Shown: positions 15,010-37,623 of the stretch, piece by piece
Position numbering within the stretch: the first letter of the stretch is position 1
Layout of the letters: each line of letters starts with the position of its first letter
Origin: Nitrospiraceae bacterium
GTDB lineage: Bacteria; Nitrospirota; Nitrospiria; Nitrospirales; Nitrospiraceae
DNA: 64,000 nt
NCBI GenBank assembly: GCA_050246315.1
Contig: JBFWWG010000001.1
Location: forward strand, 480,001-544,000
Direction: 5' to 3'
Notes under the pieces: generated by a model
Told to the model about the DNA's origin: nothing
Database searches by the model: none
What the model saw: only the letters and a program-made list of their open reading frames with translations
Program-made: the position numbers and the translations under genes

Positions 15010-16275
15010 ATGGCCGTCGAGTCTCCCGTCAAAGCGCTCCTGTGCGGTTTCTCCAGCAACGTCGAGGCTGCCGCATATGTGATCAACCGGCTGAAGCCGG
15101 ACCTCCTCTGTTTTTTTGCTCCCGAATCCAGCAAGCCCCTTATCGAACAGCAGGTTCAGCCAAAGCTCGCGCAGATGCCCCGCCGGTGGGACATCATTGC
15201 GACCCCCGATTCGCTGGAGTTTGTCGCCTCCTACCATGCGCTCATTCGCGCCCTTCCGCCGCTGCTCCAGACCTGGGACGTCCTCCGCGGGGAATTGGTC
15301 ATTGCTTGGGCTGATGCCTCGCCGGCCATGGTCGGGGCGCTGATCCTGGCCGGGCTCGATAAAGCGTCGCGCGTCGTCCAACTGTTGGAACCGCCTGCGG
15401 CCACGGGACCGGCCGCTGACTCGCCGATTGGAACATCGGAGGAGCGATGGAAGTGGATGCAGGGAAATCCCTGGGATGAGGGCTCGGCCTGGCTGCGCAA
15501 GGAGGCGAGTGATCTGTTCAATAAAGGTTCGTACGAAGCGGCGACCTCCCTGTTCAAGCAACTCGAGCAGCGGGTGAGCGGGGGGCAGAAGCCCCTCTAT
15601 CGCGCGTTCGCCGATCTGGCCGAAGGATATGGATTGTGGCACCGGTTCCAGTACCGTCCGGCATGGGATAAATTGAAGACCTCGCACAGAGCGCTCGAGA
15701 TGGCGTCGGTTTGGGGCGGGCCCCCGGGGCTCAAGGAGCTGATCCCGGCCCTCAAGGCCAATGCGGGATTTCTCGAACGGCTGGTCCTTGATCCGCAAGA
15801 GGTGAAGGAGCAGGCGGCGCTGGATCTGCTGGCACAGGCTCGGCGTCGGGCCGAGCACCAGAGGGACATCGAGGGAGCCATGGTCGCACTAGTGCGGGCT
15901 CTGGAAGCGTTTGCACAGCGGCAACTGTTCAAGCAGTACAAGATCAAGACCTGGGATGTGCAGGCGGAACAATTGCCGGACGCGCTGCGAGAAACCTGCC
16001 GCGCCTGCTATCTTGATGACGTGGACGGCAAGTACAAGCTGCCGCTTCAAGCGCAATTCCGTGCGCTGGCCGGGTTGGGCGATCAAATGGGGCAGGCATT
16101 CCTCGCGCAGTGGCCCAAGATGAAGCCGCTGCTGGATGCGGCGAACCATGGGGTGCTGGGGCATGGATTCGAGCCGGTGAAGCCGGAGCGGTTCCACCAA
16201 CTGTACGAGATTGTCATCAAACTGGTCGATGTCCCGGACACCTCGCTGCCGAAATTTCCCGTGCTGAACGTGTGA
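15010..16275 (+). CDS. CARF-HEPN-like protein (TIGR02710/Csm6-like), no cas genes nearby
   Basis: N-terminal Rossmann-like CARF pattern, NPW, LDLLAQARRRAE...ALVRALEAFAQ, C-terminal ANHGVLGHGF at the HEPN RxxxxH position. Confidence 0.7.
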   Translation: MAVESPVKALLCGFSSNVEAAAYVINRLKPDLLCFFAPESSKPLIEQQVQPKLAQMPRRWDIIATPDSLEFVASYHALIRALPPLLQTWDVLRGELVIAWADASPAMVGALILAGLDKASRVVQLLEPPAATGPAADSPIGTSEERWKWMQGNPWDEGSAWLRKEASDLFNKGSYEAATSLFKQLEQRVSGGQKPLYRAFADLAEGYGLWHRFQYRPAWDKLKTSHRALEMASVWGGPPGLKELIPALKANAGFLERLVLDPQEVKEQAALDLLAQARRRAEHQRDIEGAMVALVRALEAFAQRQLFKQYKIKTWDVQAEQLPDALRETCRACYLDDVDGKYKLPLQAQFRALAGLGDQMGQAFLAQWPKMKPLLDAANHGVLGHGFEPVKPERFHQLYEIVIKLVDVPDTSLPKFPVLNV

Positions 16276-16278
16276 CGC

Positions 16279-16683
16279 GTGGCAGGCACCCACACGATCG
16301 ACATTCGCATCTATTATGAGGATACCGATTGCGGCGGAGTAGTGTATTATGCGAACTACCTCAAATATTTCGAACGCGCGCGGACACACTATCTTGAATC
16401 GAGAGGGATCTCCGTTACCGAACTATTGCAGCAGGGCACCCAGTTCGTGGTGGTCCATGCCGAGCTGGATTGTCGAGCGCCGGCTCGGTATGGGGAGACC
16501 TTGACGATCGAAACGCGCCTTGCTGAGGTGACGAGGGCCTCACTGACCTTTGCACACGTGATCCGGGAGCGAACGAGCCAACGGGTGGTAGTCGAGGGAT
16601 CGGCGAAGCTGGCGGCGACCGATCTGGCCGGCAAGGTCAAACGGATCGACCAGTCGCTTGTCGACCAACTTCACGACGCATAG
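16279..16683 (+). CDS. ybgC: YbgC/FadM-family acyl-CoA thioesterase
   Basis: IYYEDTDCGGVVYYANYLKYFERART signature. Confidence 0.9.
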   Translation: MAGTHTIDIRIYYEDTDCGGVVYYANYLKYFERARTHYLESRGISVTELLQQGTQFVVVHAELDCRAPARYGETLTIETRLAEVTRASLTFAHVIRERTSQRVVVEGSAKLAATDLAGKVKRIDQSLVDQLHDA

Positions 16684-16696
16684 AAAGCATGCCCCA

Positions 16697-16810
16697 ATGG
16701 AAAAACTAGGAACGTGGTTGGCCATCGGAGGCGTCGCGATCGGATTTGTCGTGCTGGCTTGGTTGTTGTTTTCCGAGGGACCGAAAGACAAGAAGGACAA
16801 AAAGCCGTAG
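16697..16810 (+). CDS. 37-aa single-pass membrane protein (absent from ORF track)
   Basis: MEKLGTWLAIGGVAIGFVVLAWLLFSEGPKDKKDKKP*; starts 13 nt after the ybgC stop. Confidence 0.55.
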   Translation: MEKLGTWLAIGGVAIGFVVLAWLLFSEGPKDKKDKKP

Positions 16811-17016
16811 TGCTCGACCCTCGGTGTGGTCCTCTTCCGCCTTGTGTATCCTAAGTACCACCTCGAAGGGTAGAGACCTCCTCTCAAGTCCCCGTTGCAT
16901 GCACCGCTCGTTCTACATCTCGACTCCGGCGGGTCCGGTTGGGATCATCTTCATCGCTGATGGTTCCGGCCTGCCGTTCCTGTTATGAACGATCAAAGTC
17001 TTCAACTGGAGAAACA

Positions 17017-18579
17017 GTGGTCGTGAGACTGTCTCCCTGGAACGCCAAGCTGCGCGATTGGCAGGCCCGTGCCGTGGCGGCGGTCTTGACCCATCCCAGC
17101 CCGGACTTTCTTGCGACCGCGACTCCCGCGGCGGGAAAAACGCGGTTCGCGTTGCGGATCGCCCATCAATATCTGGCCGACCGAGTGGCCGGCCGCGTGC
17201 TGGTCATCTGTCCCACAAATCACCTTCGCGGACAATGGGCGGCCGCGGCCGGCTCGGTGGGGATTCAACTGGACCCGGCGCTGACGAACGAGCAGTCCTG
17301 TGAAGCCCGCGATTACCATGGGGCAGTCGTCACCTATCAACAGGTCTGCCTTGCGCCGGCTGTATTTCAGCGGGCCTGCCGGAACCGGCGCACGCTGCTC
17401 ATCTTCGACGAGTTGCACCATGCGGGCGACGGCAAGGACTGGGGCAGGGCGTTGCGGGAGGCGTTCAGCGAGGCGGCGTTTCGCCTTGCGCTCTCGGGGA
17501 CGCCCTTTCGCTCTGATAACAATCCAATCCCTTATGTCCGGTACGATCACGGAGAAAGCCAGGCCGATTTCACCTATGGCTATGCCGAAGCCATTCGCGA
17601 GGGCGTCTGCCGGCCCATTCTGTTTCCGAGCTATGAGGGGGAACTGAGCTGGTTGTCGGACGGGCGCGAACATCGGGCCACGTTTGAAGACGGATTGACG
17701 GCCGAACGGCGGAGGGAGCGGCTCAAAACGGCGCTGCTACAGGAGACCTGGCTGGGGCCGGTGATTGCCGACGCCCATACCGAATTGACCCGACTCCGCA
17801 AACAGGAGCAGCCGGACGCGGGCGGCCTGATCGTCGCCATGAACCAGGAGCATGCCAGGCAGGTGGCCGAATTGGTCGGCCGCGTCACAGGAAGCCGTGC
17901 CCATGTGGCCGTCTCCGACGATCCGGCCGCCTCCAAGACGATCGAGACGTTCGCGCAACATCCCAAACAGCAGTGGTTGGTCGCCGTGAACATGGTGAGC
18001 GAAGGCGTGGACATTCCACGACTGCGTGTCGGCGTCTACGCGTCGAACGTGTTGACGGAGATGTATTTCCGCCAAGTCGTCGGGCGGTTCGTCCGGATGC
18101 AGGAGGGCTTTCCCCGACCGCAACGGGCTTGGCTCTACCTCCCGAAGGACGCGACGCTCGTGCACTATGCCAAACGGATCAAGGCCGAGCGGGACCATGT
18201 CTTGGAAGAGGTGATGCCGTCCGTGCAGCGGACGTTGTTCGGCACCGCCGGCACCTCGCTGAAGGAATATGTGCCGTTGAACGCCGTAGCCCGAATGGAT
18301 GCCTTGATCGGTGAGGACGAGGCCGACCAGGAGGGAGGCAAGGGCGCACCGGCACCGGCCGTTTCATTGCATGACCGAAAGGCCGAGCTGCGGGAGGTGC
18401 ACCGAACCTTGGTCGGAACGGTTGCGAGGAAGACCGGTCTCGATCATCGCCGGCTCAATGCGGAGCTCATCAAACGCACCGGCGGACGTGTCGATCAGGC
18501 GACGATTCGACAACTGGAGCGTCGGATCGCCTTGCTGGAACGGTGGCGAGAATCCGGATTTGACGGAACGCGGACGTGA
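17017..18579 (+). CDS. SF2 DEAD/DEAH (ResIII-like) helicase
   Basis: LRDWQ Q-motif, TPAAGKT, DELHH, LSGTP, MVSEGVDIP, QVVGRFVR; GGAG RBS before GTG at 17017. Confidence 0.88.
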   Translation: MVVRLSPWNAKLRDWQARAVAAVLTHPSPDFLATATPAAGKTRFALRIAHQYLADRVAGRVLVICPTNHLRGQWAAAAGSVGIQLDPALTNEQSCEARDYHGAVVTYQQVCLAPAVFQRACRNRRTLLIFDELHHAGDGKDWGRALREAFSEAAFRLALSGTPFRSDNNPIPYVRYDHGESQADFTYGYAEAIREGVCRPILFPSYEGELSWLSDGREHRATFEDGLTAERRRERLKTALLQETWLGPVIADAHTELTRLRKQEQPDAGGLIVAMNQEHARQVAELVGRVTGSRAHVAVSDDPAASKTIETFAQHPKQQWLVAVNMVSEGVDIPRLRVGVYASNVLTEMYFRQVVGRFVRMQEGFPRPQRAWLYLPKDATLVHYAKRIKAERDHVLEEVMPSVQRTLFGTAGTSLKEYVPLNAVARMDALIGEDEADQEGGKGAPAPAVSLHDRKAELREVHRTLVGTVARKTGLDHRRLNAELIKRTGGRVDQATIRQLERRIALLERWRESGFDGTRT

Positions 18580-20960: not shown

Positions 20961-21003
20961 GGCAAGGGGTGGGTCTTCAGCACCACAAAGGGGTCACACA
21001 AAG

Positions 21004-21471
21004 GGGTCAGGTCTTGCAATCATGCACGAGCTTGCTCGATCTGCTTCAGCCGGCGTGGGTCGCTAGCTTTGCGCCGACGGGGTTGAGCACCACAGATCGG
21101 CACAACTCCGACAGGTGCGCATCCTTTTCCACAAGAATGGCTCTGAATCGATCTTCAAACAGATGGCCAACCCGACCATGCCGGCGATTGAAGGCCTGAA
21201 CGTATACGCCGTTCAACTGGCGCATGCCCTGCGAGAGCGTCGGTCGTGGTATATCGACGAGCAGATGGTCGCGATTGTCCATCAGGCAGTAGGCCTGATA
21301 CAGCCGGCCATACCGGTCGATCATCTGGGCGAGGGTGGCGAGAAACCGCGCATGATCTTTGTCATCGCGCACGATCGGCTGGTGGGAGTTTCCGCGTCCA
21401 GTCAGTTGGTAGACGGCGTGGGGAAACTCCAGACGAGCGGGTGAGCAATGTATGATTGCAAGACCTGACCC
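21004..21471 (-). mobile_element. Non-autonomous RAYT (IS200-like Y1)-derived element, type A, copy 1
   Basis: Perfect 20-bp inverted repeats GGGTCAGGTCTTGCAATCAT (21004-21023 / 21452-21471); internal remnant AYCLMDNRDHLL...FNRRHGRVGHLFEDRF...VVLNPV. Confidence 0.85.
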
Positions 21472-21493
21472 TCCATTTGCGCTCCATTTGATT

Positions 21494-21543
21494 TGACGAA
21501 GGAGCGTCGCTTTTTGCTGTCCGAGTTGATGCTGTTGTTCGGG
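21494..21543 (-). other. Truncated attC of the last cassette (R''-L'' half only)
   Basis: Minus strand CCCGAAC-AACAG-CATCAACT-CGGACAGCAAAAAGCGACGCTCCTTCGTC, then cut by the flank of the RAYT-derived element. Confidence 0.7.
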
Positions 21544-21550
21544 TTCTGAT

Positions 21551-22567
21551 TCAAACCAGCACCGACTCTACCGGACGCCGTAGTGATCTCGGCATTTCCT
21601 TTCCTCTGCCGAAGCGCACGACGAGATCGAGCCTCCGGTCACCCAACCTCAGGGCTTTGGCGAATTCGAGGCGAAGGCGGGATTCCTCGACAGGTTGGTT
21701 CACAAAAGCATTCCGGATTCCCAACGCCGTGGCTTGCAGCGCGAAGCGCTCATAACAGCGGCCTGCTTCGACCCAGTGAACCTTGTCGTTGACGTTCGAT
21801 ACGAACACGGCGATTCCCGCCGAACTGCGGATTTGGCGGGCATACTTGGCATTTTCAGGTTTCACGCGAAAAAGCGAACGGAACAGTAGCCTCCCCAGCC
21901 AGCGTGGAGTCGGAGGGCTTCCGGTCGATCGAGCCGTCAACCCATCACCGGTTCGGATCGCCTCGCCATCGCTGAAGCGAATCCAACTCTCTAACTCGCT
22001 CACAAAAGCCGGGTTGTCGATCTGCATGGTGTTGCCCTGAACCACATATTCGAGAACCTTCTCCATTGCTTCCCGCTCAGTCAGCAGGATGACCACAACG
22101 CCGTTCCCGGTTCCGGCTGTTTCGAGCAGCCGCAGTTCTTCCGTGGCCAGTGGTCTACCGTCAAAGCTGGTTCGTGTGCATTGTCGATAGGGAATTGCTT
22201 TGAACAGAGGCGATTCTTCCGCTTTCCATCGTTCCAGCATGACCGTGATTACTCCGCCGGAAGCAGGACTGAAATCCACATTCCCCATGAAGCCGGATGC
22301 CCTTGCCGCCTGGACAAGATTCTCGGCGGCGCATCCCAGCGACACGAAGAGATGATGGTCATCCGGATCGACCACCGGGGTACGTCGGGACAGATCCGGC
22401 AGGATTGCAATGGAACGATTCTCCAGCCGAAACCGCCAACATTGTGTGTTGTGCCCGGACGGGGCCAACGTGGCGTAGCGGACGATCTCTTTCATCTGCG
22501 CCGCCTCATCGGACGGCACGCCTTCCGAGTGGCGCCAGATGCTTTTCACCGCCTCAGCGTAATTCAT
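21551..22567 (-). CDS. Acg-family FMN-binding nitroreductase-like protein (cassette)
   Basis: LAPSGHNTQCW, SLGCAAENL, R.C.R..F, FVNQPVE, RSLRRP. Confidence 0.85.
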   Translation of the reverse strand: MNYAEAVKSIWRHSEGVPSDEAAQMKEIVRYATLAPSGHNTQCWRFRLENRSIAILPDLSRRTPVVDPDDHHLFVSLGCAAENLVQAARASGFMGNVDFSPASGGVITVMLERWKAEESPLFKAIPYRQCTRTSFDGRPLATEELRLLETAGTGNGVVVILLTEREAMEKVLEYVVQGNTMQIDNPAFVSELESWIRFSDGEAIRTGDGLTARSTGSPPTPRWLGRLLFRSLFRVKPENAKYARQIRSSAGIAVFVSNVNDKVHWVEAGRCYERFALQATALGIRNAFVNQPVEESRLRLEFAKALRLGDRRLDLVVRFGRGKEMPRSLRRPVESVLV

Positions 22568-22586
22568 CTCGCCGATTGCCTCGCAA

Positions 22587-22652
22587 CCCTAGCGCTCGAG
22601 ATCAGCCGACCCAGAACCGCGCAGGGCCGTCCGCTGCCCGCTCCTGTTGGAC
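22587..22652 (-). other. attC of the mrr cassette with non-canonical R' (GCTAGGG)
   Basis: Minus strand GTCCAAC-AGGAG-CGGGCAGC...GCTGATC-TCGAGC-GCTAGGG. Confidence 0.65.
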
Positions 22653-22661
22653 GGCCCGCGG

Positions 22662-23573
22662 CTACTCCTCGCTGAAGTAGTCGGAATCAATCTTCTTCAC
22701 CTCATAGGAGCGAGCTAGGGACACGCCGACGTTGTGGTCAATCATGTGCTTTGCGAGCGCCGCGCCATCGATGAGCACGATCGTGCTGTCGATTCGAGAG
22801 GCGAACTCAATGGCGTCGGCGGAAAAGGACGACGTCGTAATGAATACTCCCTTGCGGGCCCGATGCCCCTGAAGCGCTCCAGCGAACTTCTGGATCTCGG
22901 GGCGTCCCACCGTAGAGTCCCAGCGCTTCGCCTGGATGTAAATCACATCGAGCCCCAGGCGATCCTCCTTGATGATCCCGTCGATCCCTCCGTCGCCACT
23001 CTTGCCGACAGCCTGCCCGGCGTCGCGAAGCGTTCCTCCGTAACCCATCCGAACAAGAAGCTCGACAACGAGGCGCTCGAAGAATGATGGGGATGCGCCT
23101 TTCACTTGGTCGAGGAGTTCACCTTCGAGATCGAGTCGGAGGCGGCCGTATGCCGCATCCAAGGCTTCCTCAGGTGTGGCGTCGCTAGAGACGATGATCG
23201 GTGTTGGCGCTTCATCCGGACGCTCATGTCGCAGCTCTCGGAAAGCCACGAACTCCGGAAACTGCTCCAGATACTTGACATCGACGCGCTCGGGCTTCGA
23301 CGCGAGCACGGATTGCCCGCGATCGGTGATACGGAAGTAGCCCCGGCGAACAGACTCAATCAGACCAGCCTTCTTGAGGTAAGTCCGCGCCCAACCCGCT
23401 CGGTTCCGAATCACGGTCTGCTGACCGCTGCCGAGCAACTGCTGGCGCTCCTCGGACGACAGACTGAACTCGTCGGCTAACGAGTCCACAACTTCCCCGA
23501 TGTTGTGCTCCTTGCCATCCCTGAGGAATCGAAGGAGAGGCAGCATCACCGTTTGGTAGTCGGGTATCGCCAT
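22662..23573 (-). CDS. mrr: Mrr type IV restriction endonuclease (cassette)
   Basis: MAIPDYQ Mrr_N domain, FERLVVELL, DGGIDG, IQAKRW, LIDG. Confidence 0.95.
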   Translation of the reverse strand: MAIPDYQTVMLPLLRFLRDGKEHNIGEVVDSLADEFSLSSEERQQLLGSGQQTVIRNRAGWARTYLKKAGLIESVRRGYFRITDRGQSVLASKPERVDVKYLEQFPEFVAFRELRHERPDEAPTPIIVSSDATPEEALDAAYGRLRLDLEGELLDQVKGASPSFFERLVVELLVRMGYGGTLRDAGQAVGKSGDGGIDGIIKEDRLGLDVIYIQAKRWDSTVGRPEIQKFAGALQGHRARKGVFITTSSFSADAIEFASRIDSTIVLIDGAALAKHMIDHNVGVSLARSYEVKKIDSDYFSEE

Positions 23574-23602
23574 TCAAGACTCTCAGCCATCCGTCTTTCG
23601 GT

Positions 23603-23649
23603 CCGTCCGCTCCCGTTCAGCGGCGCGCCGCTGAACGGGATGGTTGGGC
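23603..23649 (-). other. Defective attC, GTT of R' missing
   Basis: Minus strand GCCCAAC-CATCC-CGTTCAGCGGCGCGCCGCTGAAC-GGGAGC-[GTT]-GGACGG; R'' GACGCCCAAC complements the cassette start at 24419-24428. Confidence 0.7.
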
Positions 23650-24405
23650 GTCTGGCTTCTGAAGCACCCAGATCATCACCGGACTTCGGCCTGCATCGAA
23701 CGGAGAGCGATCGTAGTTTCCATAGAGATCGAGGACATGGAATCCCGCGTCTCGCGCCATGGTCTCGAAATGATCTCTTTCGACGAACTCGAACTCCATT
23801 GGCATCAGGTGCTTCGAGCGCAGCCGCCCGTCACTATCGAAAAACTCAAAAACTTGAAGGCGCGTCACCAGAGGCCGTCCGCCCTGTTCGAAGCCGGAGA
23901 CGACGAGGCTCCCGTCCGGTGTCGCAAAGCGTCCGACGAGGCGCAGCGTTCCATCCACTTGGGCTCGGCGCACGGCGGGATTGTGCATCGTGCAGATGAA
24001 GCGGCCGCCTGGCGCCAAACATGCGAACACGGCCGAAAGTGCCTGGCGCTGACGCGGCTCGCCTATGATTTCCATGAACGATTGGAATGGCAGCAGCGCG
24101 AGCTGATAGCGTGTGTGAAGCTCGAGTTGGCAGACATCGGCACACAGTACTTCTGCGCTGAGACCACGATCCCTCAGTTTACGAGACAGAACGTCGAGCA
24201 TTCCGCGGGATCCATCGATGCAGGTCAATTGCGCTCCCGCCTGGATCAGCGCGAGTGAGAGCCGACCTGTGCCTGCGGTCAATTCCAAGATCGGCCCCTC
24301 GACCTTCGCCGTTTCCTCCAGAAAGAACGGGATGTCGTAGTCCGCGGCCACGTACAGGTCATAGATCTCCGCGACGCTGTCGTAGTCGACCGGAGTACGG
24401 CTCAT
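23617..24405 (-). CDS. Class I SAM-dependent methyltransferase (cassette)
   Basis: ILELTAGTGR, LAPGGRF; stop codon falls inside its attC. Confidence 0.88.
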   Translation of the reverse strand: MSRTPVDYDSVAEIYDLYVAADYDIPFFLEETAKVEGPILELTAGTGRLSLALIQAGAQLTCIDGSRGMLDVLSRKLRDRGLSAEVLCADVCQLELHTRYQLALLPFQSFMEIIGEPRQRQALSAVFACLAPGGRFICTMHNPAVRRAQVDGTLRLVGRFATPDGSLVVSGFEQGGRPLVTRLQVFEFFDSDGRLRSKHLMPMEFEFVERDHFETMARDAGFHVLDLYGNYDRSPFDAGRSPVMIWVLQKPDAQPSRSAARR

Positions 24406-24510
24406 AGCTGCCTCATAAGACGCCCAACGCCTGAATGAAGCCGCGCCGCGTAGCGGCGTCGGGTTGAATGAATGAACCAGAATAGTGAACCAGTACGGGT
24501 CACAGAATTA

Positions 24511-25158
24511 GGGGGCAGAGTACTCTTGCCTGGTGGGATGTAGCTCGTTTGGTCGACCCCCTGTTTCCCCTATCAAGCTCCTTCCGACTTTCCTGCCGAT
24601 GGCCTCCCTGATACGTCTTACCTCCCACCACTCGCCCTGCTGCGTCGCTGTCCGGATGCGATCCCATTCATGGTCAGGCAATGAGTCCTCAAGCCGGCTG
24701 GCATAGGCGCTCGCTCGGGCTTGTGGGTTGTCTCCCAACGTCACGTACCAGGAGTCCTCATCAAGAAGAGGATCTGGTCGTCCCAGGGCCCGTCCGGTCA
24801 TGGTCGGCATTGAAATACCGGACATAGCGTTGCCCAACGCTCTGCATGAAACGACTCAGATCGCCTTCGTGTCCCGGTTCCATCAAGAGATGAACATGGT
24901 TGGTCATGAGCACGGATGCATGGAGCCGTACCCCGCATTGCTGTTTGGCCACGAGCAGACACTCGCCAAAGACCTGATAGGCCTTCGGAGCATGAAAGAC
25001 AGGTTGCCGATTATTGCCGCGCTGGATGACGTGATGTGGGGACGCCGGTAGGCTAAGTCGAGGCGGACGCGCCATGATTGGCAAACCCCGCACACCAGTG
25101 AGGTCGGGACCCTACGTCACGGCTGGCGGGACTGTCAATGCAATAGTTCTCTGACCCC
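24511..25158 (-). mobile_element. RAYT-derived element type B containing a disrupted Y1 transposase pseudogene (about 24508-25075)
   Basis: MARPPRL..PHHVIQRGNNRQPVF..VLMTNHVHLL..RYFN then frameshift/deletion; imperfect inverted repeats GGGGGCAGAGTACTCTTG / CAATAGTTCTCTGACCCC. Confidence 0.8.
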
Positions 25159-25171
25159 TATTCCGGTTCCA

Positions 25172-25312
25172 ATCTTTGTCATCGCGCACGATCCACTGGT
25201 GGGAGTCTCCGCGTCCAGTCAGATGGTGGACGGCGTGGGGAAACTCCAGACGAGTGGGCGAGCCATGCTGGAACTCGACTCCAACGCGATGTGTGACTGC
25301 AAGACCTGACCC
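25172..25312 (-). mobile_element. Partial type A RAYT-derived element (one terminus plus transposase 5' end)
   Basis: Closely matches 27841-27982; ends in TGACTGCAAGACCTGACCC. Confidence 0.8.
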
Positions 25313-25375
25313 TCAATTCCCACCATTCCTCAATTCGGTGGACCCTCCATTCGGTGAATGAATTGTTAGCCGAAC

Positions 25376-25828
25376 CTACGCTTTGACAGGGTAACGGCTG
25401 GAAATGGCGATACGGTTCCAAGTATTGATGACCACCGCAAGCCATTCGATGGCCGCGATTTCCTCTTTGGAAAGATGTGCGGAAGCTTGCTCGTAAACCG
25501 TATCTGGCAATTGACCATCTGAGATCAGCGTGATCGCCTCCACCAACTTCAGAGCGGCACGTTCTTTTTGCGTGAAGTAATCGGTCTCTCGCCATGCTGC
25601 GAGAACAGAGATGCGATCACTGCTCTCTCCACTGGCCAATGCATTCCGTGTATGCAGCCTGACGCAGAATGCACATTGGTTGATCTGAGAAGCCCGCAAG
25701 CGTAAGAGGTGAGAGAGGCCATCTGAGATACCTGCTTGGGTCGTTGCGTCAGACGCAAGCCGATCGAGTGCAACAACTGCCTGATATAGCGCAGGCGAGA
25801 ATGTTCCAAGATTGATTCTTTCAGTCAT
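25376..25828 (-). CDS. Carboxymuconolactone decarboxylase/AhpD-family protein (cassette)
   Basis: LRLRASQINQCAFCVRLH, INTWNRI. Confidence 0.9.
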   Translation of the reverse strand: MTERINLGTFSPALYQAVVALDRLASDATTQAGISDGLSHLLRLRASQINQCAFCVRLHTRNALASGESSDRISVLAAWRETDYFTQKERAALKLVEAITLISDGQLPDTVYEQASAHLSKEEIAAIEWLAVVINTWNRIAISSRYPVKA

Positions 25829-25847
25829 GCAGATTCCTCTGCTTGGA

Positions 25848-25915
25848 GGCTAACGCCGCCGTTCACCTGCGGCGGAGCGAGTGATCGCAGGGAGCGAGGC
25901 CGGCGTCAGGTGAAC
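25848..25915 (-). other. Half attC (L''-L'-R', no R'') fused to the next attC
   Basis: Minus strand GTTCACC...GGTGAAC-GGCGGC-GTTAGCC. Confidence 0.7.
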
Positions 25916-25980
25916 GCTAGAGCTCAGCGGCGGCAATGGAGCGCTGCGGAACTGCCGTCCGCTGCAGTGCCTTGTTCGGC
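25909..25980 (-). other. attC of the 256-aa methyltransferase cassette
   Basis: Minus strand GCCGAAC-AAGGC-ACTGCAGC...GCTGAGC-TCTAGC-GTTCACC; begins right after the stop codon. Confidence 0.85.
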
Positions 25981-26751
25981 TTATTTGTTTCCAACATAGA
26001 TTGATATTGGATAGGAAAAATGGATTTCGTTGCCAACCAAGTGAGCATCCATGCCCAATGAATTAGCATTGATATCGTTTTTGAATATGTCCCTTATCTT
26101 GTCATCATCCCCAGGTTTGGGAAACGATGCCTTGAGTTGCTTTTCAAGCTCCATCGGAACGGTATAGCGTCCACGCCGAAGATTGCTCAACCCGGATTGT
26201 CCAAGAAGTTGTTCCCATGACTCGTATGACAACGCTCGGGTATGAGATGGATCACGGAGCTTTTCCATGTGGTTGTAGGCCTCAGCTTTGTCGGCAGGCA
26301 ATGCTGCGTCTGCTATCAAAACAACGCCTTTCGGCTTACAGACTCTGATCATCTCCGTCAAGACCGCCTTCGGGTCGAGAAAGTGATGGAAGCTGTATCT
26401 GGTAACGACGATGGAGAATGAATCGGATGCGTAAGGCAATGGGGATGCGGTTCCGATGTCCCATGAGAGATTGGTCAAACCAAGTTCCTTTTGGCGATTC
26501 ATTGCCTGCTGGATCATCGTTTCGGTGAGATCAACTCCCGTAACATGCTGAGCCACCTTGGCAAACTCGCAAGCCACCAGCCCAGGTCCACATGCAACAT
26601 CGAGGACGAGGTCATCACCAGAAACGTTGCACATCTCGATGAGCATGTGGATTGAGTCCAAGTGCCCAGGCAACTTGGCGAAGGGAATTGCCTGCTGGGT
26701 AAATTGTTTCACAATCTCCGCGTCATGTTCCTGTTGACTTCTTGCGGTCAT
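25981..26751 (-). CDS. UbiE-like class I SAM methyltransferase (cassette)
   Basis: VLDVACGPG, LPYASDSFSIV, FHHF, RDPSH; AAGGAG RBS just after GTTAGGC. Confidence 0.9.
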   Translation of the reverse strand: MTARSQQEHDAEIVKQFTQQAIPFAKLPGHLDSIHMLIEMCNVSGDDLVLDVACGPGLVACEFAKVAQHVTGVDLTETMIQQAMNRQKELGLTNLSWDIGTASPLPYASDSFSIVVTRYSFHHFLDPKAVLTEMIRVCKPKGVVLIADAALPADKAEAYNHMEKLRDPSHTRALSYESWEQLLGQSGLSNLRRGRYTVPMELEKQLKASFPKPGDDDKIRDIFKNDINANSLGMDAHLVGNEIHFSYPISIYVGNK

Positions 26752-26766
26752 TCTTTATCTCCTTCT

Positions 26767-26868
26767 GCCTAACGCGGGGCCTGAGCCGCGCCTGGAAGCG
26801 GGCCGACCGAGGAGGAGTCTCAGAAACGGTCATTGTTCAGAGGTTCCTTTGGCGGCGTTGTGTTACAA
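26767..26868 (-). other. Degenerate attC of the GNAT cassette (R' clear, left arm poorly paired)
   Basis: R' GTTAGGC with GCTCAGG-CCCCGC upstream; candidate R'' TTGTAAC overlaps the GNAT stop. Confidence 0.45.
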
Positions 26869-27399
26869 GGACTTCTTCATGCGCAAAAGCGGAACCGCGG
26901 TACCTCCGCGACCATCAATCATGTTTTCGTCAGCCACATACCCGCAAGCGCGATAGAGGGGTTCTCCGGCCAAGGTGGCGACTAATTCCATCCTGGTAAA
27001 ACCTTCTGCTTGCGCCGCCGCTTCGCAGAGCGCAATGATCAGCCGCCCCACGCCTTTGCGGGTGTGGTGGGGATGGGTATACATCGCGCGGATGCGTGCC
27101 GCGTCTTTCGTCGGGTCGAGGAGGGCCGCACTGCGTCCGAGGGTCTGATCTCCACCATACAGGGTGGCACGGCGGCTCCATCCGCCACAGCCGGCAAGTT
27201 GACCATCTACATCTACAATGAAATAGGTCTTATCATCAATCAGCTGAGTGTCCAAGCCCATAATGGCTCGACTCGAGGCAATCTGGCGTTCATCGAGAAA
27301 TGGCTTCTGCAATTCTGCGATTGCCGCGTTCATTAACAGTCTTAACGCGTTGAGGTCGTGGCGGCCGGCCAGCCTGTGGATCAATGTCGCTTGCGTCAT
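26863..27399 (-). CDS. GNAT-family N-acetyltransferase (cassette; 5' cassette boundary lost)
   Basis: GCGGWSRRATLYGGD, AMYTHP..RKGVG, LYRACGY; AGGAGGAG RBS. Confidence 0.9.
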   Translation of the reverse strand: MTQATLIHRLAGRHDLNALRLLMNAAIAELQKPFLDERQIASSRAIMGLDTQLIDDKTYFIVDVDGQLAGCGGWSRRATLYGGDQTLGRSAALLDPTKDAARIRAMYTHPHHTRKGVGRLIIALCEAAAQAEGFTRMELVATLAGEPLYRACGYVADENMIDGRGGTAVPLLRMKKSL

Positions 27400-27489
27400 C
27401 ACTCCTCCTTGGGCCTGATTGAATTCAATCCTCGATGTCGGGGTCACGATTTCAGGGGTCAGATGTCAGGGTCACAGGGGTCAGATGTC

Positions 27490-27983
27490 AGGGTCAGGTC
27501 TTGCAATCATGCACGAGCTTGCTCGATCTGCTTCAGCCGGCGTGGGTCGCTAGCTTTGCACCGACGGGGTTGAGCACCACAGATCGGCACAACTCCGACA
27601 GGTGCGCATCTTTTTCCACGAGAATGGCTCTGAATCGATCTTCAAACAGATGGCCAACCCGACCATGCCGGCGATTGAAGGCCTGAACGTATACGCCGTT
27701 CAACTGGCGCATGCCCTGCGAGAGCGTCGGTCGTGGTATATCGACGAGCAGATGGTCGCGATTGTCCATCAGGCAGTAGGCCTGATACAGTCGGCCATAC
27801 CGGTCGATCATCTGAACGAGGGTGGTGAGAAACCGCGCACAATCGTTGTCATCGCGCACGAGCCACTGGTGGGCGTCTCCGCGTCCAGTCAGATGATGGA
27901 CGGCGTGGGGAAACTCCAGACGAGCGGGCGAGCCATGCCGGGACGCTACTTCAGCGCAATGTGTGATTGCAAGACCTGACCCT
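27490..27983 (-). mobile_element. Type A RAYT-derived element, copy 2
   Basis: Perfect 20-bp inverted repeats AGGGTCAGGTCTTGCAATCA; near-identical to 21004-21471, including the NRDH motif and the truncation point. Confidence 0.88.
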
Positions 27984-28494
27984 TTGTCTGCTTTTCGAAC
28001 GACTCGGAAGCTGCTCGGAAGTCCAGCGCTTCCGAGTCGAGTCCGGGCATCGGCTGCTCGTCGAAGGTCTCGCTCCGCCCGAAACGGCGAAGCTCCTCGA
28101 CGAGCTCGCGATCCGCGCGGCGGTTGGTCGACCCCACGCGGACGTACACCCCGGCCTCGCGCCCCTCGCGCTTCAGGTGGTGCGGGCGCGCCGGACTCGG
28201 GTGTACCTGCACGGCGACGACCTGCGTACGCCGCCACGGGAGAATCTCGATCTCCGGCACGAGCCGCGGGGCCACGTGGTCGCTGACGAGGTTCGCCAGT
28301 CGCTCCTCCAGATCGAGCGGCTCGCGGATACCCCGCACATGGCCGGTTCTGTCTTCCACGCCCAGCAGCACGATCCCGCCGGCGGTGTTCGCTAAGGCGA
28401 CGACGGTCTTGAGCAGCCCGTCGGGGCCGGAGAGCTCGCGCTTGAACTCCAGCGTCTTGCCTTCCGGGCGCTTGAGCAGGTCGACCAAGTTCAT
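27984..28494 (-). pseudogene. Schlafen/AlbA_2-domain (RecG-like/HATPase fusion type) gene truncated by the RAYT-derived element (cassette)
   Basis: EGKTLEFKRE, VALANTAGGIVLLGVED, YVRVGSTNR; reading frame runs into the element's inverted repeat. Confidence 0.8.
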
Positions 28495-28631: not shown

Positions 28632-28704
28632 GTCTAACGGCTAGGTTTCAGCCACGGAGGCTCATGACCGGACCGGCCGCCGACGGCTGCAAACCCTGTT
28701 AGGC
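28632..28704 (-). other. attC site
   Basis: Minus strand GCCTAAC-AGGGT-TTGCAGCC...GGCTGAAA-CCTAGCC-GTTAGAC; GGTGCCTAAC complements the cassette start at 29321-29330. Confidence 0.85.
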
Positions 28705-29323: not shown

Positions 29324-29382
29324 GCCTAACGTTGGAGCTAACCGGCCTGCCGCTGCGGGTCCGGTTGAGCGACTGGTTAGGC
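29324..29382 (-). other. attC site (59 bp)
   Basis: Minus strand GCCTAAC-CAGTC-GCTCAACC...GGTTAGC-TCCAAC-GTTAGGC; GGTCGCCTAAC complements the cassette start at 32687-32697. Confidence 0.92.
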
Positions 29383-29466: not shown

Positions 29467-32400
29467 TCAACCGCAACACTCGTCATCCCCCTTCATCTCG
29501 ACATCAATCGCGACTCGGCGAACACGAACACTCTTGACCTTGTCGCCGGGCAGGTCCAGACACTCGAGAAGCCGGCTGGCTCTGTCGCGGCACTGCGCCT
29601 TCTTGTCTTCAGGCGTCCGGTCGTTGAACGGCATCTCGAGGTCCGGATCGATTCGGTACGTCATGCCACCGATGACCGCGGTATCGGCGGTCGCGGTGAC
29701 GACGATGTCGCGCTCGGCTGCGGCCGCGACGTCAGCCTTCGTGAATGGCGCGCCCGCGTGGACATCAAAGGTGACGAGTCGTTGCTCGCGGGCCTTCAGG
29801 CGGGCGCCGCCTTCAGGCAAGGTCTGCAGACCGATCCGCCATCCTCGCCGCGCCAACATTGCAGGAAGAACGATAGACACCTCAATCTTCGCGGCTGTCC
29901 GACCAGGATTGCCCACCCAGAAGCCCTTGCCGTGGAGTCCCGCCATGAGACCCGCCAGTCCGCCGCCACCCGGAACGAGCGTGACATTCCGCTGACCGAC
30001 GTTGTTGTCGTTCGGCACGAGGCGCCAGTCCTCGACGACTTCGCCCGCCGTGAAGTTGTCGACGTTGCTTGGATCGCCTGTCGCCGACACGATCATCAGC
30101 ATGCAGTCATGCCCCCAGGCGTTCGTGACGGGGGTCCACTCGAACGGGCCGACGGTCTTCTCTTCGCCGTCGTTGGGCTGCAGCGTTCCGGCTGAGAGTT
30201 GGGCGGTCGTCATGGGTTGCAGGTCGTTGGGCCAGAGCACCCCTGCGGAAGGCTTGCAGTGGTAGCCCTTCACGACCACGTTGTTGGCGACGGACGTGCC
30301 ACGATTCTTGATCTTCACGTAGGCGTAGTTGGTGGCGGGGTCCCCTCCCGCATCGAGCAGCGCCGGTTCTTCGTGGCCCGCCAAGCCGTCGGGGTTACGG
30401 CGGTTCCAGATCGTCGTCGTTGCCCAATGGACCGGCAGATACTGGTACTCGCCCGCCCGGCTATCGTCGATGTAGACATCGACGCTGGGCGGTGCGCCGC
30501 CGTTGAGATTCTGTTTTTCAAATGCCCACGTGAGCACCTTGCCGTAGGCGCCTCCAAAAACCCCTTCCGAGGTCCAGTTGCCGGCGTCCGCGGTAATGAG
30601 CGCACTGAGAAAACCAGCGGCCGTCTTGGCGGTGCCGCCGACGCCCAAGCTGGCCGGGGTCATGCTGCCGACGGCTCGCAACAGCAGATAGGCCATGCAG
30701 CGCGCGGCGAATTCGCGCCGGACGACACTGTTCGAGTCGCCACCGATGGATCGGTAGGCACGGAACATCGTCGTGGAGAGAATTTGCTCGCTGAGGTAGC
30801 TGCCGAGATCGGCCGTGCCACCCCACGCCCACTTGCCGATGGTTGCCGTCCCGGAAGCGCCAGTCCCTCCGCCGCCCGTAATCGTCACCGTCGGCGCTCC
30901 GGTAAAGCCTGTGCCGTGGTAAGTGACCATCAGGAAGGTAACTGCCCCTCCGGAGACAAATGCGAGCGCTTTCGCACCCGAGCCGCCGCCTCCGCTGATG
31001 GTGACCGTGGGTGCACTTGCGTAGCCGGAGCCTCCACTCGTCAGAGTCAGGGCAATCACTCCGGAATCCGAAGGCGCCCGGTCTGATCGTCTTTCGAAGT
31101 AGGTGACGAAGGGCGCAAGGACAAAGCGGTCAATCGTGGCCGCATCGTGCCACTTGGACACGTAGTCATTGAGAATCATGGCGAAGCTGTCACCGGCGCT
31201 GTGCGCGAAACCGAAATTGGGGCCTCCGACATGGTCGTAGAGGATCCCGTGGCCGCCCAGTTCGTGAAGGACCACGCGCCAGTCTGTTGAAATGCCGATC
31301 GGGTTGGCGGTGTCGCCCTCGTCCGCAAGCGCATAGCACGTGTGATCGATGCCGTCGCCGTCGCCGATACAATGGCCATTGACGACGTTTCCAAGGGCGC
31401 GATGATCGACTTCAACCGGGAACGCCGTACCGTTGAAGTACCCCCCAGCGCCGGTCAGCGAAAACCCGAGGTCGGCCACCAGCCGAAAGAATCGGTCGGT
31501 GTGGTAATAGGCGTTGACTGCCGAAAACTGGTTGGTCCGCACATCCCAGATGTCGAAATCACTACCCGCAGGCCGTGTGGGGGCACCGACGGTCGGGGTC
31601 TCGATCTCGGTCAGGGTCGCCCAGGTGCCCTGAAGTGATTGGGTGGAGGGCGTTCCCGTGGGCGGATTCAGGTTGGCAAGCGGCTCGTTATCTCGATGCG
31701 GGTTCAGCACGGCGTTGCTTTTGTCCGCCGTATTGGTTGCCGTGCCACTGCTCGTGATCGGATCGTAGGTGAAGACCAGCCCGTTGATGCCCGAAGTGAG
31801 GGCCCGCAGATAGAGGATCGTGTTGGTCTCGACCTCAACGAGCACTCGCCAGTTCATCCGATGGCCGTTATATGGCAGGCGGAAAATGAGCTCGGCGACG
31901 AGGTACCAGCCTCCGTCGCGGATTGACTTGGGTACAGGCGGGAGCGGCAGCGTCGGCGGCGTGCCGCAGAGTGGCTGATCGACCGAATGCGGGTGGTCCT
32001 GCGTCCGTGTCGCCGGATCGTACCGGTAGATGAAGAAGCGGCCGCGGATCAATCGGGCTGCGGCCTCTGGATCTTTCACCGCTTTTGACGCCTTGGCTGC
32101 CTTGCCGACAATCTCGGGCAACAGGTCCGAACTCGGAACGGCGGGCGCTTCAACTCGCCTCGGTCTCGGCTGTGAAGGCGAAGCGTCGATCTTCTCGGCG
32201 GTCGCAAACAGCCGGCGGTAGCGCTCCAGCGCTTCGGCTGAAGGCATTCTTGCGTCAATGCCTTGCTCGCTGGTGTCGGTCGCGGCAACGACACGAGTTG
32301 GGGCCTGTTTGATGGTGGCGCTAACGCCGGCCACCCAGACTGGAGTATTGAGATAGGTCTGGCAATAGGCAAAGGTGGCTGAGTCAAACAAGACTTTTTC

Positions 32401-32649
32401 CTCGCTGAAGCGATACTCGACACCCTTTTCCTGAGGGTCGAGGTATGAGACCGATTGTTCGAGGCTCTGCAGCTGCTCGCGCGCTATGTTGAGCTTTCCG
32501 GCCATCTCGCGCACATAGGCCGCCGCAGCCTCCCGGCCGCGAAGGCGCTCGATCTCGCGATATTCGTCGAGGTGATTGATTCCTCGAATGCGGCCAGCAT
32601 CGTCGAGCGTGAGAGTGGCCTTTATGGAAGGGTCGTAGGTTGTTTTCAT
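29467..32649 (-). CDS. 1060-aa M4/M36-like zinc metallopeptidase with propeptide-like N-terminus, Gly/Thr-rich repeats and Ig-like C-domain (cassette)
   Basis: [22 protein letters not shown]; two xGGSGY/GTGFxxAPTVTIxGGGG repeats; AAAGGAG RBS. Confidence 0.7.
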
Positions 32650-32690: not shown

Positions 32691-32754
32691 GCCTAACGTT
32701 TGAGCTCAGGCCGCGGCCCGTCAGGGCCGTCGCGCCTGCAGCGAATTGTTGGGC
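32691..32754 (-). other. attC site (64 bp)
   Basis: Minus strand GCCCAAC-AATTC-GCTGCAGG...CCTGAGC-TCAAAC-GTTAGGC; GTCGCCCAAC complements the cassette start at 33819-33828. Confidence 0.93.
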
Positions 32755-32765
32755 GACAACTTCGC

Positions 32766-33773
32766 TTAATAGTTTCCTGGGCCGGACTTTTCCAGATCAC
32801 CATCAAAGCAATACACGATGCCATCAAGATATGGGCGCACCTCCTTCTCCCAGCTTGCCTTACGATGGGAAAAGGAAATGAGTCTTGCAGCCGTCAATTC
32901 TGGCGATGAGCCGTCTGAGTATTTTACGGCCTTATAACCAGAAAAAGTATCCGCTTTACTATGAAGCGAAGGGCTTTGCTTAGTGTAGGATTGGAAACTC
33001 AGGATGCGGCCAGACTTGCACTTTTCAGTTGAAGAATAACTTCTCGTCACATGAGCTTCTGAGTATGAGTCCTCGACCATATGAAGAAGGGTACCAAGCG
33101 CGTGCTCTTGGAAGTCATTTTTCGTGTCAGTCAACAAATACCTGGGCTGCAAGATCCAATTAATTTCCCATTCGGCGTGCCTGCCACCAAAGTAATTCTT
33201 AATACGATCTATTTTAACTTCTGAAAACTTGTCTCTACGCGCAATTTCTCCAATAGATATTTTGTAAGCAAACTCTGCCCACATAAATATATTTTCTTTA
33301 GTCTTATGCGGATCCTCTCCGTCTTTTGATGCCATTGAATGCAGAAACTGCAAGTCTCCGTAGTGGCTTCGGTAATGCATCATGTATCTGCCATCAATGC
33401 GAACGCCTTTCTTTGCCCTGTGCTCTGCGTCTTTCATATGGCCAAGCCAAATGGCTTGCCGAGCCTTATATAAATCCTGATTAGGGTCGTCGTTCCACCA
33501 GATCCCCCTAAGCAAGGAATCTTGTATAACCTTCCCATTCATCAGGTTGCGCTCATATTCGCATCCACTTTTGTTCTCTGAGGCTTCACATTCAGTCAGA
33601 AATATTTTTCGCCCCTTATTCGTAATGATTTCGTGAACATTTTCGCTGATAAAATCCATGAGCCCACTTTTGCTGTCTATGCTCTCTGATTTTCTGCTAA
33701 GCGGATTTATATGGAATGCACTCGCCATTGACGGCAGCATTGCGATTAATATGATTGAAACGATTTTCATCAT
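32766..33773 (-). CDS. AT-rich secreted protein with phospholipase C/P1-nuclease-like zinc motifs (first cassette)
   Basis: Signal peptide; VHEIIT, WNDDP, SHYGDLQFLH, LHMVEDSYSEAH; visibly AT-richer than its flanks. Confidence 0.6.
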   Translation of the reverse strand: MMKIVSIILIAMLPSMASAFHINPLSRKSESIDSKSGLMDFISENVHEIITNKGRKIFLTECEASENKSGCEYERNLMNGKVIQDSLLRGIWWNDDPNQDLYKARQAIWLGHMKDAEHRAKKGVRIDGRYMMHYRSHYGDLQFLHSMASKDGEDPHKTKENIFMWAEFAYKISIGEIARRDKFSEVKIDRIKNYFGGRHAEWEINWILQPRYLLTDTKNDFQEHALGTLLHMVEDSYSEAHVTRSYSSTEKCKSGRILSFQSYTKQSPSLHSKADTFSGYKAVKYSDGSSPELTAARLISFSHRKASWEKEVRPYLDGIVYCFDGDLEKSGPGNY

Positions 33774-33914
33774 ACCTGCCCTCCATAGGCACATGATTTG
33801 ATTTCTGAATGCTTCCTTGTCGCCCAACTATTAAGTGAGTATACTGCTCCCCTCTAGGACAACGGCCAGCTGAACTGAGTACACTGTGGCTGATCCACCA
33901 AGGAGGGATCAGTC

Positions 33915-34193
33915 ATGAAGCGACGGAAGTGGGACGCCAAGACGAAGGCGATCATCGTGCTTGAAGGGCTCAAGGGCAAACCGGTGACCGCCATCTGTCA
34001 GGACTACCAGCTCAGTCAAGCGCAGTATTATCAGTGGCGAGATCATTTTCTCTCGAACGCGGCCAAACCGTTTGAGGTCGCCCAGCAGACCGAACGCGAA
34101 GCCCGGCTCCAGCACGAGAACGCTCGGCTGAAGAAGCTGGTCGGCGAGCTCACCTTGGAGCTCAAAAAAAGCGACGAGGAGGTGTGGCCATGA
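33915..34193 (+). CDS. IS3 transposase OrfA (HTH)
   Basis: KAIIVLEGLKG..QYYQWR..ENARLKKLVGEL; A7G slippery site at 34164-34171. Confidence 0.9.
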   Translation: MKRRKWDAKTKAIIVLEGLKGKPVTAICQDYQLSQAQYYQWRDHFLSNAAKPFEVAQQTEREARLQHENARLKKLVGELTLELKKSDEEVWP

Positions 34194-34969: not shown

Positions 34970-35064
34970 CAAATGGGGAGCAGTACATGAGCCGCCAGGG
35001 ACCTGCGCGTGCTGGCAGCCTATCACGTGTAGTTCTTCATCCCGAACCGCGCAAAATCTGACGG

Positions 35065-37088: not shown

Positions 37089-37107
37089 GGGTGACCTTTG
37101 TGTCTGG

Positions 37108-37470: not shown

Positions 37471-37623
37471 CTGGGCTGAATCCTGACAAATCGGCTCTGC
37501 AAGCCAGTTTGCAAGACACGTGCACGGTCAGCGAAAGCGAGTGGGGCTGAGTGTCTCTCGCCGTTGACAATTCAGAAAACCGCGTGCTGAAATGCCCGGT
37601 AACGAGTAATCGGGTCGTCTCCT

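Follow-up and report, generated by a model that had tools for sequence, protein, structure and literature searches.

Decayed TIRtron remnants and a split attC site in the cassette array of a Nitrospiraceae integron

The window analyzed here is a 64,000-nucleotide stretch of DNA from a Nitrospiraceae bacterium (assembly GCA_050246315.1, contig JBFWWG010000001.1, positions 480,001 to 544,000 of the forward strand), whose genome, referred to below as G000, comprises 4.39 Mb in 30 contigs. The window carries an integron, and three loci within its cassette array are occupied by remnants of mobile elements. These elements appear to be decayed TIRtrons, a kind of element already known, in which a single TIRYT gene, encoding a Y1/HUH enzyme with a helix-turn-helix (HTH) tail that resembles the REP-associated tyrosine transposases (RAYTs), lies between GGGGTCAG inverted repeats. 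One composite remnant entered the attC site of a cassette and left a 9-bp duplication, and the remnants together disabled three attCs, each of them either lost or split. We favor, with moderate confidence, the view that the three loci are dead TIRtron remnants that accumulated in a dispensable array without any dedicated recognition of attC. Coordinates given without a contig are those of the window; contigs of G000 and of related genomes (G001 and so on) are numbered with the prefix C.

TIRtron remnants and their family

Four remnants, all in minus-strand orientation, make up the three loci. A1 (21004-21471), at the distal end of the array, and A3 (27491-27982) are internally deleted copies recognized from their inverted repeats, their mutual alignment and their translations, and in the case of A1 also from a Y1_Tnp match. 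Both carry the perfect 18-mer GGGTCAGGTCTTGCAATC at each end in inverted orientation (in A1 the exact word at 21004-21021 and its complement at 21454-21471), and the word, as read from the sequence, is not self-complementary. The two copies are 95.5% identical over 447 nt, and A2 (25170-25313) is a partial A copy with 91% identity to A1 over 144 nt. B (24511-25158) is the remnant of a second type with ends of its own (left, GGGGGCAGAGTACTC; right, the complement of GGGGTCAGAGAACTATT); all three loci are thus bounded by GGGGTCAG-type inverted repeats. When A1, A2 and A3 are aligned together with their flanks, the similarity breaks off precisely where the inverted repeats meet the flanking DNA, which is different in each case; the elements moved as units bounded by these repeats.

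The Pfam domain Y1_Tnp (PF01797) matches the open reading frame (ORF) of A1 at 25.1 bits (cut-off 23) and the B ORF (24761-25093) at 37.7 bits, and the A3 region reaches a sub-cut-off 20.9 bits. In translation, about 125 N-terminal codons of the A copies survive, followed by the last 12 or so codons and then the end of the element; the copies have no start codon, the HUH motif reads RDH and the tyrosine of the ELCRY motif is replaced by serine. B retains the HUH motif as HVH and loses its frame after about 105 aa, and it scores 37 bits, below the cut-off, against the NCBIfam model for REP-associated tyrosine transposases (REP_Tyr_transpos). No copy in the array is able to encode an active enzyme. 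A is a derivative of 470-490 bp formed by internal deletion, similar to a miniature inverted-repeat transposable element (MITE) and present as two copies and one fragment, and B is a 650-bp remnant, the two representing separate subfamilies. The original prediction, which placed remnants of RAYT-like Y1/HUH enzymes with GGGGTC-type inverted ends at all three loci of the array, is borne out by the Y1_Tnp matches, the 18-bp repeats and the presence of the integrase gene intI.

Relatives of the window copies are few. An A-like copy with the same deletion architecture and 76% identity lies at C5:134177-134668 of the same genome, a search with an A-specific 22-mer returned no matches, and a copy of B with 97% identity is present in G002. 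A search for the B-type end matched six loci, of which only the G002 contig is real, so that B has no wider sample.

Intact members of the family are found outside the window. G000 has eight Y1_Tnp matches and four intact TIRYT paralogues of 302-313 aa (one on C20, two on C4 and one at C1:569 kb), each flanked by GGGGTCA-type inverted ends; GGGGTCAG stands at the tips of A, of B and of the ends of the four intact paralogues. In the three that were scanned (C1:569, C4:264 and C20) Y1_Tnp is N-terminal, and the C-terminal region, which is deleted from the window copies, has weak matches to HTH_23/28/38 or Bac_DnaA_C that all fall below the Pfam cut-offs (e.g., 28.8 vs 31.5 bits). The C1:569 paralogue scores 86.9 bits against REP_Tyr_transpos, whose cut-off is 80, and the score against the NCBIfam IS200 model NF033573 is 21.2 bits against a cut-off of 55. 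The search for an intact RAYT yielded these four paralogues and, within G000, no intact TIRYT with the A or the B end type. Solo ends and doublets are dispersed through G000 and through at least 135 loci elsewhere in many phyla, where the 18-mer stands as a solo end, forms doublets that can fold into hairpins, or precedes the start codon of a TIRYT by about 30 nt.

The window elements fit the published description of TIRtrons, and their presentation as an undescribed class must be given up. In TIRtrons, inverted repeats sharing GGGGWSAS, at a roughly constant spacing ahead of the gene, take the place of the repetitive extragenic palindromes (REPs) (Di Nocera, De Gregorio & Rocco 2013, PMC3733652), TIRYTs combine a Y1 domain with an HTH tail (PMC3733652, PMC6006769), and TIRtrons with their TIRYTs largely correspond to subclass 2.1 of TnpA-Y1 (TnpA-REP) (Quentin et al. 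2018, PMC6006769). The elements described here share with them the Y1/HUH gene, the GGGGWSAS inverted repeats, the presence of several paralogues per genome and the scattering of ends as singles, dimers and clusters; the intact copies, with their sub-cut-off matches, may also carry the C-terminal HTH/Bac_DnaA_C-like tail of subclass 2.1.2. They differ in that the window copies are dead and internally deleted, and in their position within an integron array, one of them inside an attC with a 9-bp duplication, a setting absent from the text of PMC3733652 and PMC6006769 that we consulted.

The REPIN-RAYT system (Bertels & Rainey; Nunvar et al.) is alike in its related Y1 enzyme and in the short non-coding doublets of the flanking repeat that lie between genes. 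The elements studied here end in plain inverted repeats and not in GTAG-tagged palindromic REPs, and the gene is not single-copy here, with four intact paralogues and further remnants in the genome. Elements of the IS200/IS605 group (IS608, ISDra2) have the same Y1/HUH catalytic domain, and presumably the same single-strand chemistry, whereas the window elements carry inverted repeats and score poorly against the IS200 model. IS200/IS605 elements have subterminal hairpins and are not known to have inverted repeats or target duplications. Like the TIRtron remnants, IS1111-attC elements and group IIC-attC introns are mobile elements found in integron attCs and able to disable cassettes. Those elements hold a fixed position and orientation in attC, have most of their copies in attCs and use a DEDD transposase or an intron reverse transcriptase, whereas the positions of TIRtrons vary, most of their copies lie elsewhere and their enzymes are different. 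MITEs, finally, are comparable to the A copies, which are short and non-autonomous, arose through internal deletion and have inverted repeats at their ends, with one insertion showing a direct target duplication; the parent enzyme of the A copies is of the Y1/HUH and not of the DDE type. In the literature searched we found no published description of TIRtron debris in integron arrays or of an insertion inside an attC, and nothing that ties RAYTs, TIRYTs or TIRtrons to attC or integrons beyond an analogy drawn in PMC8266576.

The split attC and the erosion of the array

The central locus documents a single insertion in detail. The composite insertion of 881 bp (24474-25354, minus strand), delimited by reading the sequence and bridged by independent contigs, consists from left to right of a short tandem repeat (24474-24510), B, a spacer, A2 and a second short tandem repeat (25314-25354), and the 9-bp duplication TGAATGAAT flanks it at 24465-24473 and 25355-25363. 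On either side lie the two halves of the attC of the CMD cassette, both on the minus strand: in cassette sense, the 5' piece (25355-25371) has an R'' core, GGCTAAC at 25366-25372 on the plus strand and hence read as GTTAGCC, together with one copy of the 9-mer, and the 3' piece (24422-24473), which is 90% identical to an attC of G001, has the R' core GTTGGGC and the other copy. R1, a covariance model of Nitrospiraceae attCs that we built from 8 sites of G000 and related genomes, scores 28.0 bits over 24422-24477, which is not one of its seeds. In cassette sense, the composite, made up of B and a piece of A, inserted into the attC 10 nt past R''.

Removal of the 881 bp and of one 9-mer restores a 60-mer that matches an uninterrupted attC of G001 (C1:2946496-2946555), adjoining the second intI of that genome, at 54/60 positions; G059 has a second uninterrupted attC that resembles the rejoined site. 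These intact homologues confirm that the composite splits an attC. The rejoined site is less clean than had been proposed, as it folds at -12.6 kcal/mol (z -2) compared with -19.4 kcal/mol (z -6) for the intact G001 site. For the cassettes of A1 and A3, a search of 60 relatives gave no empty-site allele, and these cassettes are not shared; the G002 contig ends at window position ~20141, and its other flank matched only dispersed repeats.

That the junctions are artefacts of assembly is a possibility to which we give practically no weight. In its favor, contigs assembled from short reads are interrupted within A1 and A3, which are repeated copies, and an artefact was one of the outcomes against which the original prediction was to be judged. 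Single contigs nevertheless span the junctions: one from run X9 (6247 nt) covers 21274-27520 with 0 differences and one from run X1 (2153 nt) covers 23707-25859 with none, and sixteen runs of 6 studies, possibly with the source sample among them, contain no less than 98% of the words sampled from 24300-25500, which include the composite junctions. The same runs show this lineage to be common in engineered water systems. In this comparison with metagenome contigs, uncovered stretches and the low-share run X17 count neither way. Contig joints of the form 21021>27960 were considered as deletion alleles and rejected, since they are end-doublets from elsewhere in the metagenomes.

At the two outer loci the damage takes the form of loss. 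The last attC survives only as its 5' part (21494-21543, minus strand), an R''-type core (21537-21543, CCCGAAC) together with some 45 nt of the site ahead of A1; R1 has no match in 21494-21543. A metagenome contig of run X17 matches 21494-21526 and then runs on into a GTTAGGC core, which supports the proposal that the site was cut midway where A1 now lies. A3 truncates the AlbA_2 cassette gene (27984-28494, minus strand; Pfam SLFN_AlbA_2, E 4.8e-25), whose ORF enters the A3 repeat at about aa 168, where a homologue in G011 reads past the break. Neither an attC in the interval between AlbA and the GNAT acetyltransferase cassette (R1 scan) nor an attC core upstream of the GNAT ORF is present, and the original prediction is right about both the truncation and the missing site. 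It had also taken the 5' end of the GNAT cassette to be replaced, and that ORF (26863-27402, minus strand; Pfam Acetyltransf_1 and translation) is in fact intact. With three attCs disabled, the erosion of the array that was predicted did take place.

Most TIRtron ends in these data are accompanied on the outside by short tandem "stutter" repeats, whose unit joins a locus-specific flank word to the first 6-13 bases of the end. In the window they occupy 27431-27490, 25314-25354, 24474-24510 and 20975-21003; the first of these, outside the left end of A3, is made of GGGGTCA plus GATGTCA units and is 44 nt shorter in a metagenome relative (joint 27439>27484). Copy number at the same locus also differs between G000 and the 95%-identical G002, and the stutter repeats may be a footprint of enzyme activity. 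TIRtron ends also seem to nest, with B directly beside A2, two different ends in contact in G001 and, at locus L026, an A-type end that interrupts a TIRYT gene. Two intact TIRtrons in G001 (G001:C1:1369400-1370450 and 3619800-3621400; L164 and L165) are 98.6% identical, a sign of recent movement; one stands beside a truncated copy of its own sequence in tandem and borders an interrupted insertion sequence (IS) transposase gene, and in the other the last 48 nt and the adjoining flank are duplicated in tandem.

Targeting of attC or accumulation in dispensable DNA

The proposal that these are attC-targeting elements fares poorly across other genomes. An exact search for the 18-mer end returned at least 135 loci in many phyla, and among the 135 listed loci R1 detects an attC at E<=0.05 in three (L069 at 41 bits, L049 and L068) and in one more, L113, at E 0.12, with none at the 28 loci with Nitrospir* titles among the matches listed. 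A first attC finder, both too strict and noisy, was replaced by a constrained-fold scan, which recovers about 3 of the approximately 9 attCs in the window array; used as a strict heuristic, it places a site at 3/135 listed loci and finds about 27 distinct sites in the 4.39 Mb of G000. R1 is specific in G000 and less sensitive in other phyla, the true attC in L113 scoring only 16.8 bits. Inspection by eye places an attC at a distance of 0.25-0.85 kb in L069 and L049, and about 5/135 listed loci lie in, beside or at most 1 kb from an attC, a figure that is a lower bound owing to the reduced sensitivity of R1 outside the Nitrospiraceae. The 7-mers of attC cores occur at 0.41/kb near the ends vs 0.25/kb further away, with a calculated random expectation of 0.49/kb.

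Closer relatives give a similar picture. Among the 60 relatives, no Y1_Tnp match other than those of G000 lies within 100 kb of an intI match on the same contig (G001 0/8; G004 0/2; most other assemblies are too fragmented). With at most 2 mismatches allowed, there are 16 A-type ends in G001 and 9 in G002, and the regions examined around the attCs of these genomes contain none; TIRtron scraps were not found in the arrays of G004 and G010, in the C2 attC cluster or in the second integron of G001. Nor do the junctions within arrays fall at any one position, lying as they do inside an attC, inside the AlbA ORF and, in G001, inside another cassette ORF. Most intact copies are elsewhere, and attC targeting is not a trait of the TIRtron family as a whole.

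On the reading that we favor, the copies would have been moved in trans by intact paralogous TIRYTs encoded elsewhere in the genome and would have persisted and piled up because cassette DNA is dispensable, hops are local and TIRtron ends nest side by side, a combination that needs no dedicated mechanism of attC recognition. Deletions beside the ends of A3 and A1 would then have removed two further attCs, and with these losses and an IS3-family element in the attI region the array is probably now partly frozen.

A series of observations weighs against this reading, and most of them concern the arrays of this genus. All three intI-linked arrays of G000, in the window, on C5 and on C8, hold TIRtron scraps. 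A-type loci with at most 1 mismatch lie in integron arrays in 4/9 cases, and in a census of seven end words at up to 3 mismatches 5/44 loci do so, four of them flagged by the script and the fifth, the C8 cluster, added by hand because it starts 147 nt outside the set bound. The arrays total 20.9 kb, or 0.48% of the genome, and by our own arithmetic a uniform null gives P ~3e-6, or ~1e-3 if the window is counted once; a null in which insertions survive only in permissive DNA gives P ~0.24, at an assumed and unmeasured share of ~4%. The G001 array orthologous to that of the window carries, at 4638965 and 4639061, scraps belonging to two further subfamilies, which cut a cassette ORF and not an attC. 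Three loci in other genomes, judged by eye, add to this list. In two purple sulfur bacteria (L113, 197-318; L068, 1397-1518) a solo A-type end is followed after 10-11 nt (ACGCAT...) by an attC starting from its R'' core, and at L038 a solo end sits in the middle of an attC-like hairpin. The duplication itself is unexpected, as we know of no 9-bp target duplication made by Y1 enzymes of the IS200/IS605 type, and the two 98.6%-identical TIRtrons of G001 show no target duplication, only tandem copies of end plus flank.

The decayed integron on C5 (C5:132243-134700, locus L182) consists of an intI fragment, a cassette and the A-like TIRtron copy; the fragment (132243-132359) is C-terminal, with 39 residues at 61.5% identity (E 1.4e-9), the attC of the cassette lies at 132981-133040 (R1 56.8 bits), an end-like GAGTCAGGTCTTG cuts the ORF that follows the cassette, and a PIN/antitoxin-like pair is also present. 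On C8, the third intI (84849-85865) has four C20-type end units at 81.35-82.5 kb inside its attC cluster; these units of about 70-110 nt (C8:81350-82540; L163 850-2040) share one orientation, end in the C20-type end followed by GTTAC and are interleaved with small ORFs. In G002, the B copy belongs to a 1.8-kb block of two cassettes, one of them the B remnant, at a chromosomal site outside any integron (G002:C3:167873-169697, L149), and it lies between two complete attCs with both ends no more than about 30 nt from them. An 8-bp direct repeat, GTGCGCAT, borders the block on both sides, and G000 lacks the block at the corresponding syntenic position (C6:109655-109671); at G000:C6:90210-90423 the comparison with G002 gives an indel without clean boundaries. 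Co-orientation of remnants with cassettes, which holds in the window, on C5, in G001 and in G002, was dropped as a regularity, the C8 units pointing in the opposite direction.

The uniform null is rejected and the null with a small permissive fraction is not; the association with arrays in this genus is real, and accumulation in dispensable DNA fits it about as well as a real preference does. Under such a preference, elements moved by TIRYTs, or the A and B lineages of this genus, would favor folded attCs or cassette boundaries, given that Y1/HUH enzymes act on single-stranded hairpins. We regard this as a credible but unlikely explanation. It can appeal to the one clean insertion inside an attC confirmed by intact homologues, to the abutment of A1 on half an attC, to the closeness of the G002 B copy to complete attCs and to the L113, L068 and L038 cases, as well as to scraps in 3/3 intI-linked arrays of G000 and 1/2 in G001, to the census count in so small a part of the genome and to scraps in 3/7 examined arrays when the window and G002 are excluded (C5, C8 and G001 at 4.64 Mb). 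It has to contend with at least 130/135 listed loci, and 28/28 of the Nitrospirota loci, lying far from any attC, with junctions that differ in position (at 10 nt inside R'', at 28 nt beyond R', and within ORFs, those of AlbA and of a G001 cassette), with the location of intact TIRtrons outside arrays and with the scrap-free arrays of G004 and G010, C2 cluster and second G001 integron; the near-attC cases, moreover, were chosen by eye and post hoc. The fullest form of the idea holds that TIRtrons, or some of their lineages, prefer folded attCs and cassette boundaries and enter with a staggered 9-bp duplication, thereby constituting a third kind of attC-associated mobile element that erodes and freezes sedentary chromosomal integrons and is able to ride on or seed cassettes. 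We think this improbable, and to our knowledge no Y1/HUH element makes a staggered 9-bp duplication.

The linkage might instead come from the integron machinery, with TIRtron fragments riding as cassette content moved by IntI, or cassettes recombining in beside TIRtron ends, and no transposase targeting at all. The 97%-identical B copy of G002 lends itself to this explanation through its place between two complete attCs in a block with an 8-bp direct repeat that is absent from the syntenic G000 site, although the genome-wide identity of ~95% between G000 and G002 means that 97% for B needs no transfer. So do L113 and L068, where the attC lies 10-11 nt inside the solo end, at the place expected for the TIRYT leader, as if a cassette site had replaced the gene, and the A-like copy in the second, decayed integron on C5. 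Recombination by IntI at G|TT is not known to yield a split attC with a 9-bp duplication, the pattern that surrounds the composite, and A1 and A3 are not attC-bounded; we hold this origin to be quite improbable. Segmental duplication or recombination within the array, which would make the A copies leftovers of a process other than transposition, is suggested by the presence of three A copies within 7 kb in the same orientation and by the short AATGGAG that the right flanks of A1 and A2 share beside the repeat. It is largely refuted by the arrest of homology at the inverted repeats with all flanks different and by the diverged copy of the same architecture on another contig, and we consider it very improbable. 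Accumulation of dead TIRtrons in dispensable array DNA is the reading we retain, and a lineage-specific or weak preference for attC may exist beside it.

TIRtrons are widespread, with the same 18-base tip at the at least 135 loci found in many phyla, and we know of no biochemical test of them. The locus described here offers one well-documented insertion event, with a filled site, intact sister sites and a 9-bp duplication, in a genome where every integrase-linked array has gathered TIRtron debris. Should the association be due to targeting, it would connect HUH transposition to attC biology through the single-stranded DNA on which both depend, and would help to explain the decay of chromosomal integrons; if cassette arrays merely tolerate junk, the locus is an ordinary example of array erosion.

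Layout of the integron and neighboring features

The host structure is a true integron, with an IntI-type integrase adjoining an attC-bounded cassette array. The gene intI (35185-36420, minus strand) encodes a protein that matches NCBIfam TIGR02249 at 462 bits against a cut-off of 265 and carries the Pfam domains Phage_integrase and Phage_int_SAM_4. The gene and the cassettes share a strand, with the array extending downstream of the 3' end of intI, from ~33.8 kb down to 21.5 kb of the window on the minus strand. The intI orthologue of G001, a genome of the same genus, has 82% DNA identity, and the locus as a whole is orthologous, with intI and the two flanking regions aligning at 76-91% identity around a different set of cassettes.

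On the cassette strand of the window, R1 finds five sites at 28 bits or more, three of them seeds. The seeds, all on the minus strand, are the attC at 32691-32754 (54.5 bits; R'' GCCCAAC, R' GTTAGGC), that at 29324-29382 (62.3 bits) and that at 28632-28704 (39.6 bits) upstream of the AlbA cassette. A further minus-strand attC (25910-25980, 30.4 bits, not a seed), between the second methyltransferase cassette and the CMD cassette, lies within a longer structure seen by folding at 25849-25978. The sites that intervene among the nitroreductase-like, Mrr and first methyltransferase cassettes score low with R1, at best 12.7 bits at 22587-22652, and have degenerate cores when judged by eye.

The attI region is itself interrupted by an IS3-family insertion sequence (33840-34987, plus strand), identified from its HTH_Tnp_1 and rve/rve_3 domains and with its ends read from the sequence. 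A 4-bp TGAG repeat stands on each side (33836-33839 and 34988-34991), and the HTH_Tnp_1 and rve ORFs overlap in a frameshift arrangement. The element lies a few bases from the conserved crossover point CTTAATA|GTT, and the attI of G001 is uninterrupted. Since it is unrelated to TIRtrons, its presence in attI indicates that the array tolerates other insertions too.

Pfam returned nothing at E<=0.01 for two large cassette ORFs, at 29467-32649 (1060 aa) and 32766-33827 (353 aa, the DNA of which is visibly rich in AT). Just past the distal end of the array, 15010-18579 holds a Csm6-type HEPN gene (Cas_Cas02710, Csm6_6H) and a ResIII/DEAD helicase, a pair that is conserved beside the G001 integron as well. 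A dispersed repeat of ~130 bp, with more than 40 copies at 74-96% identity in G002, is found at about 37100-37490 of the window.

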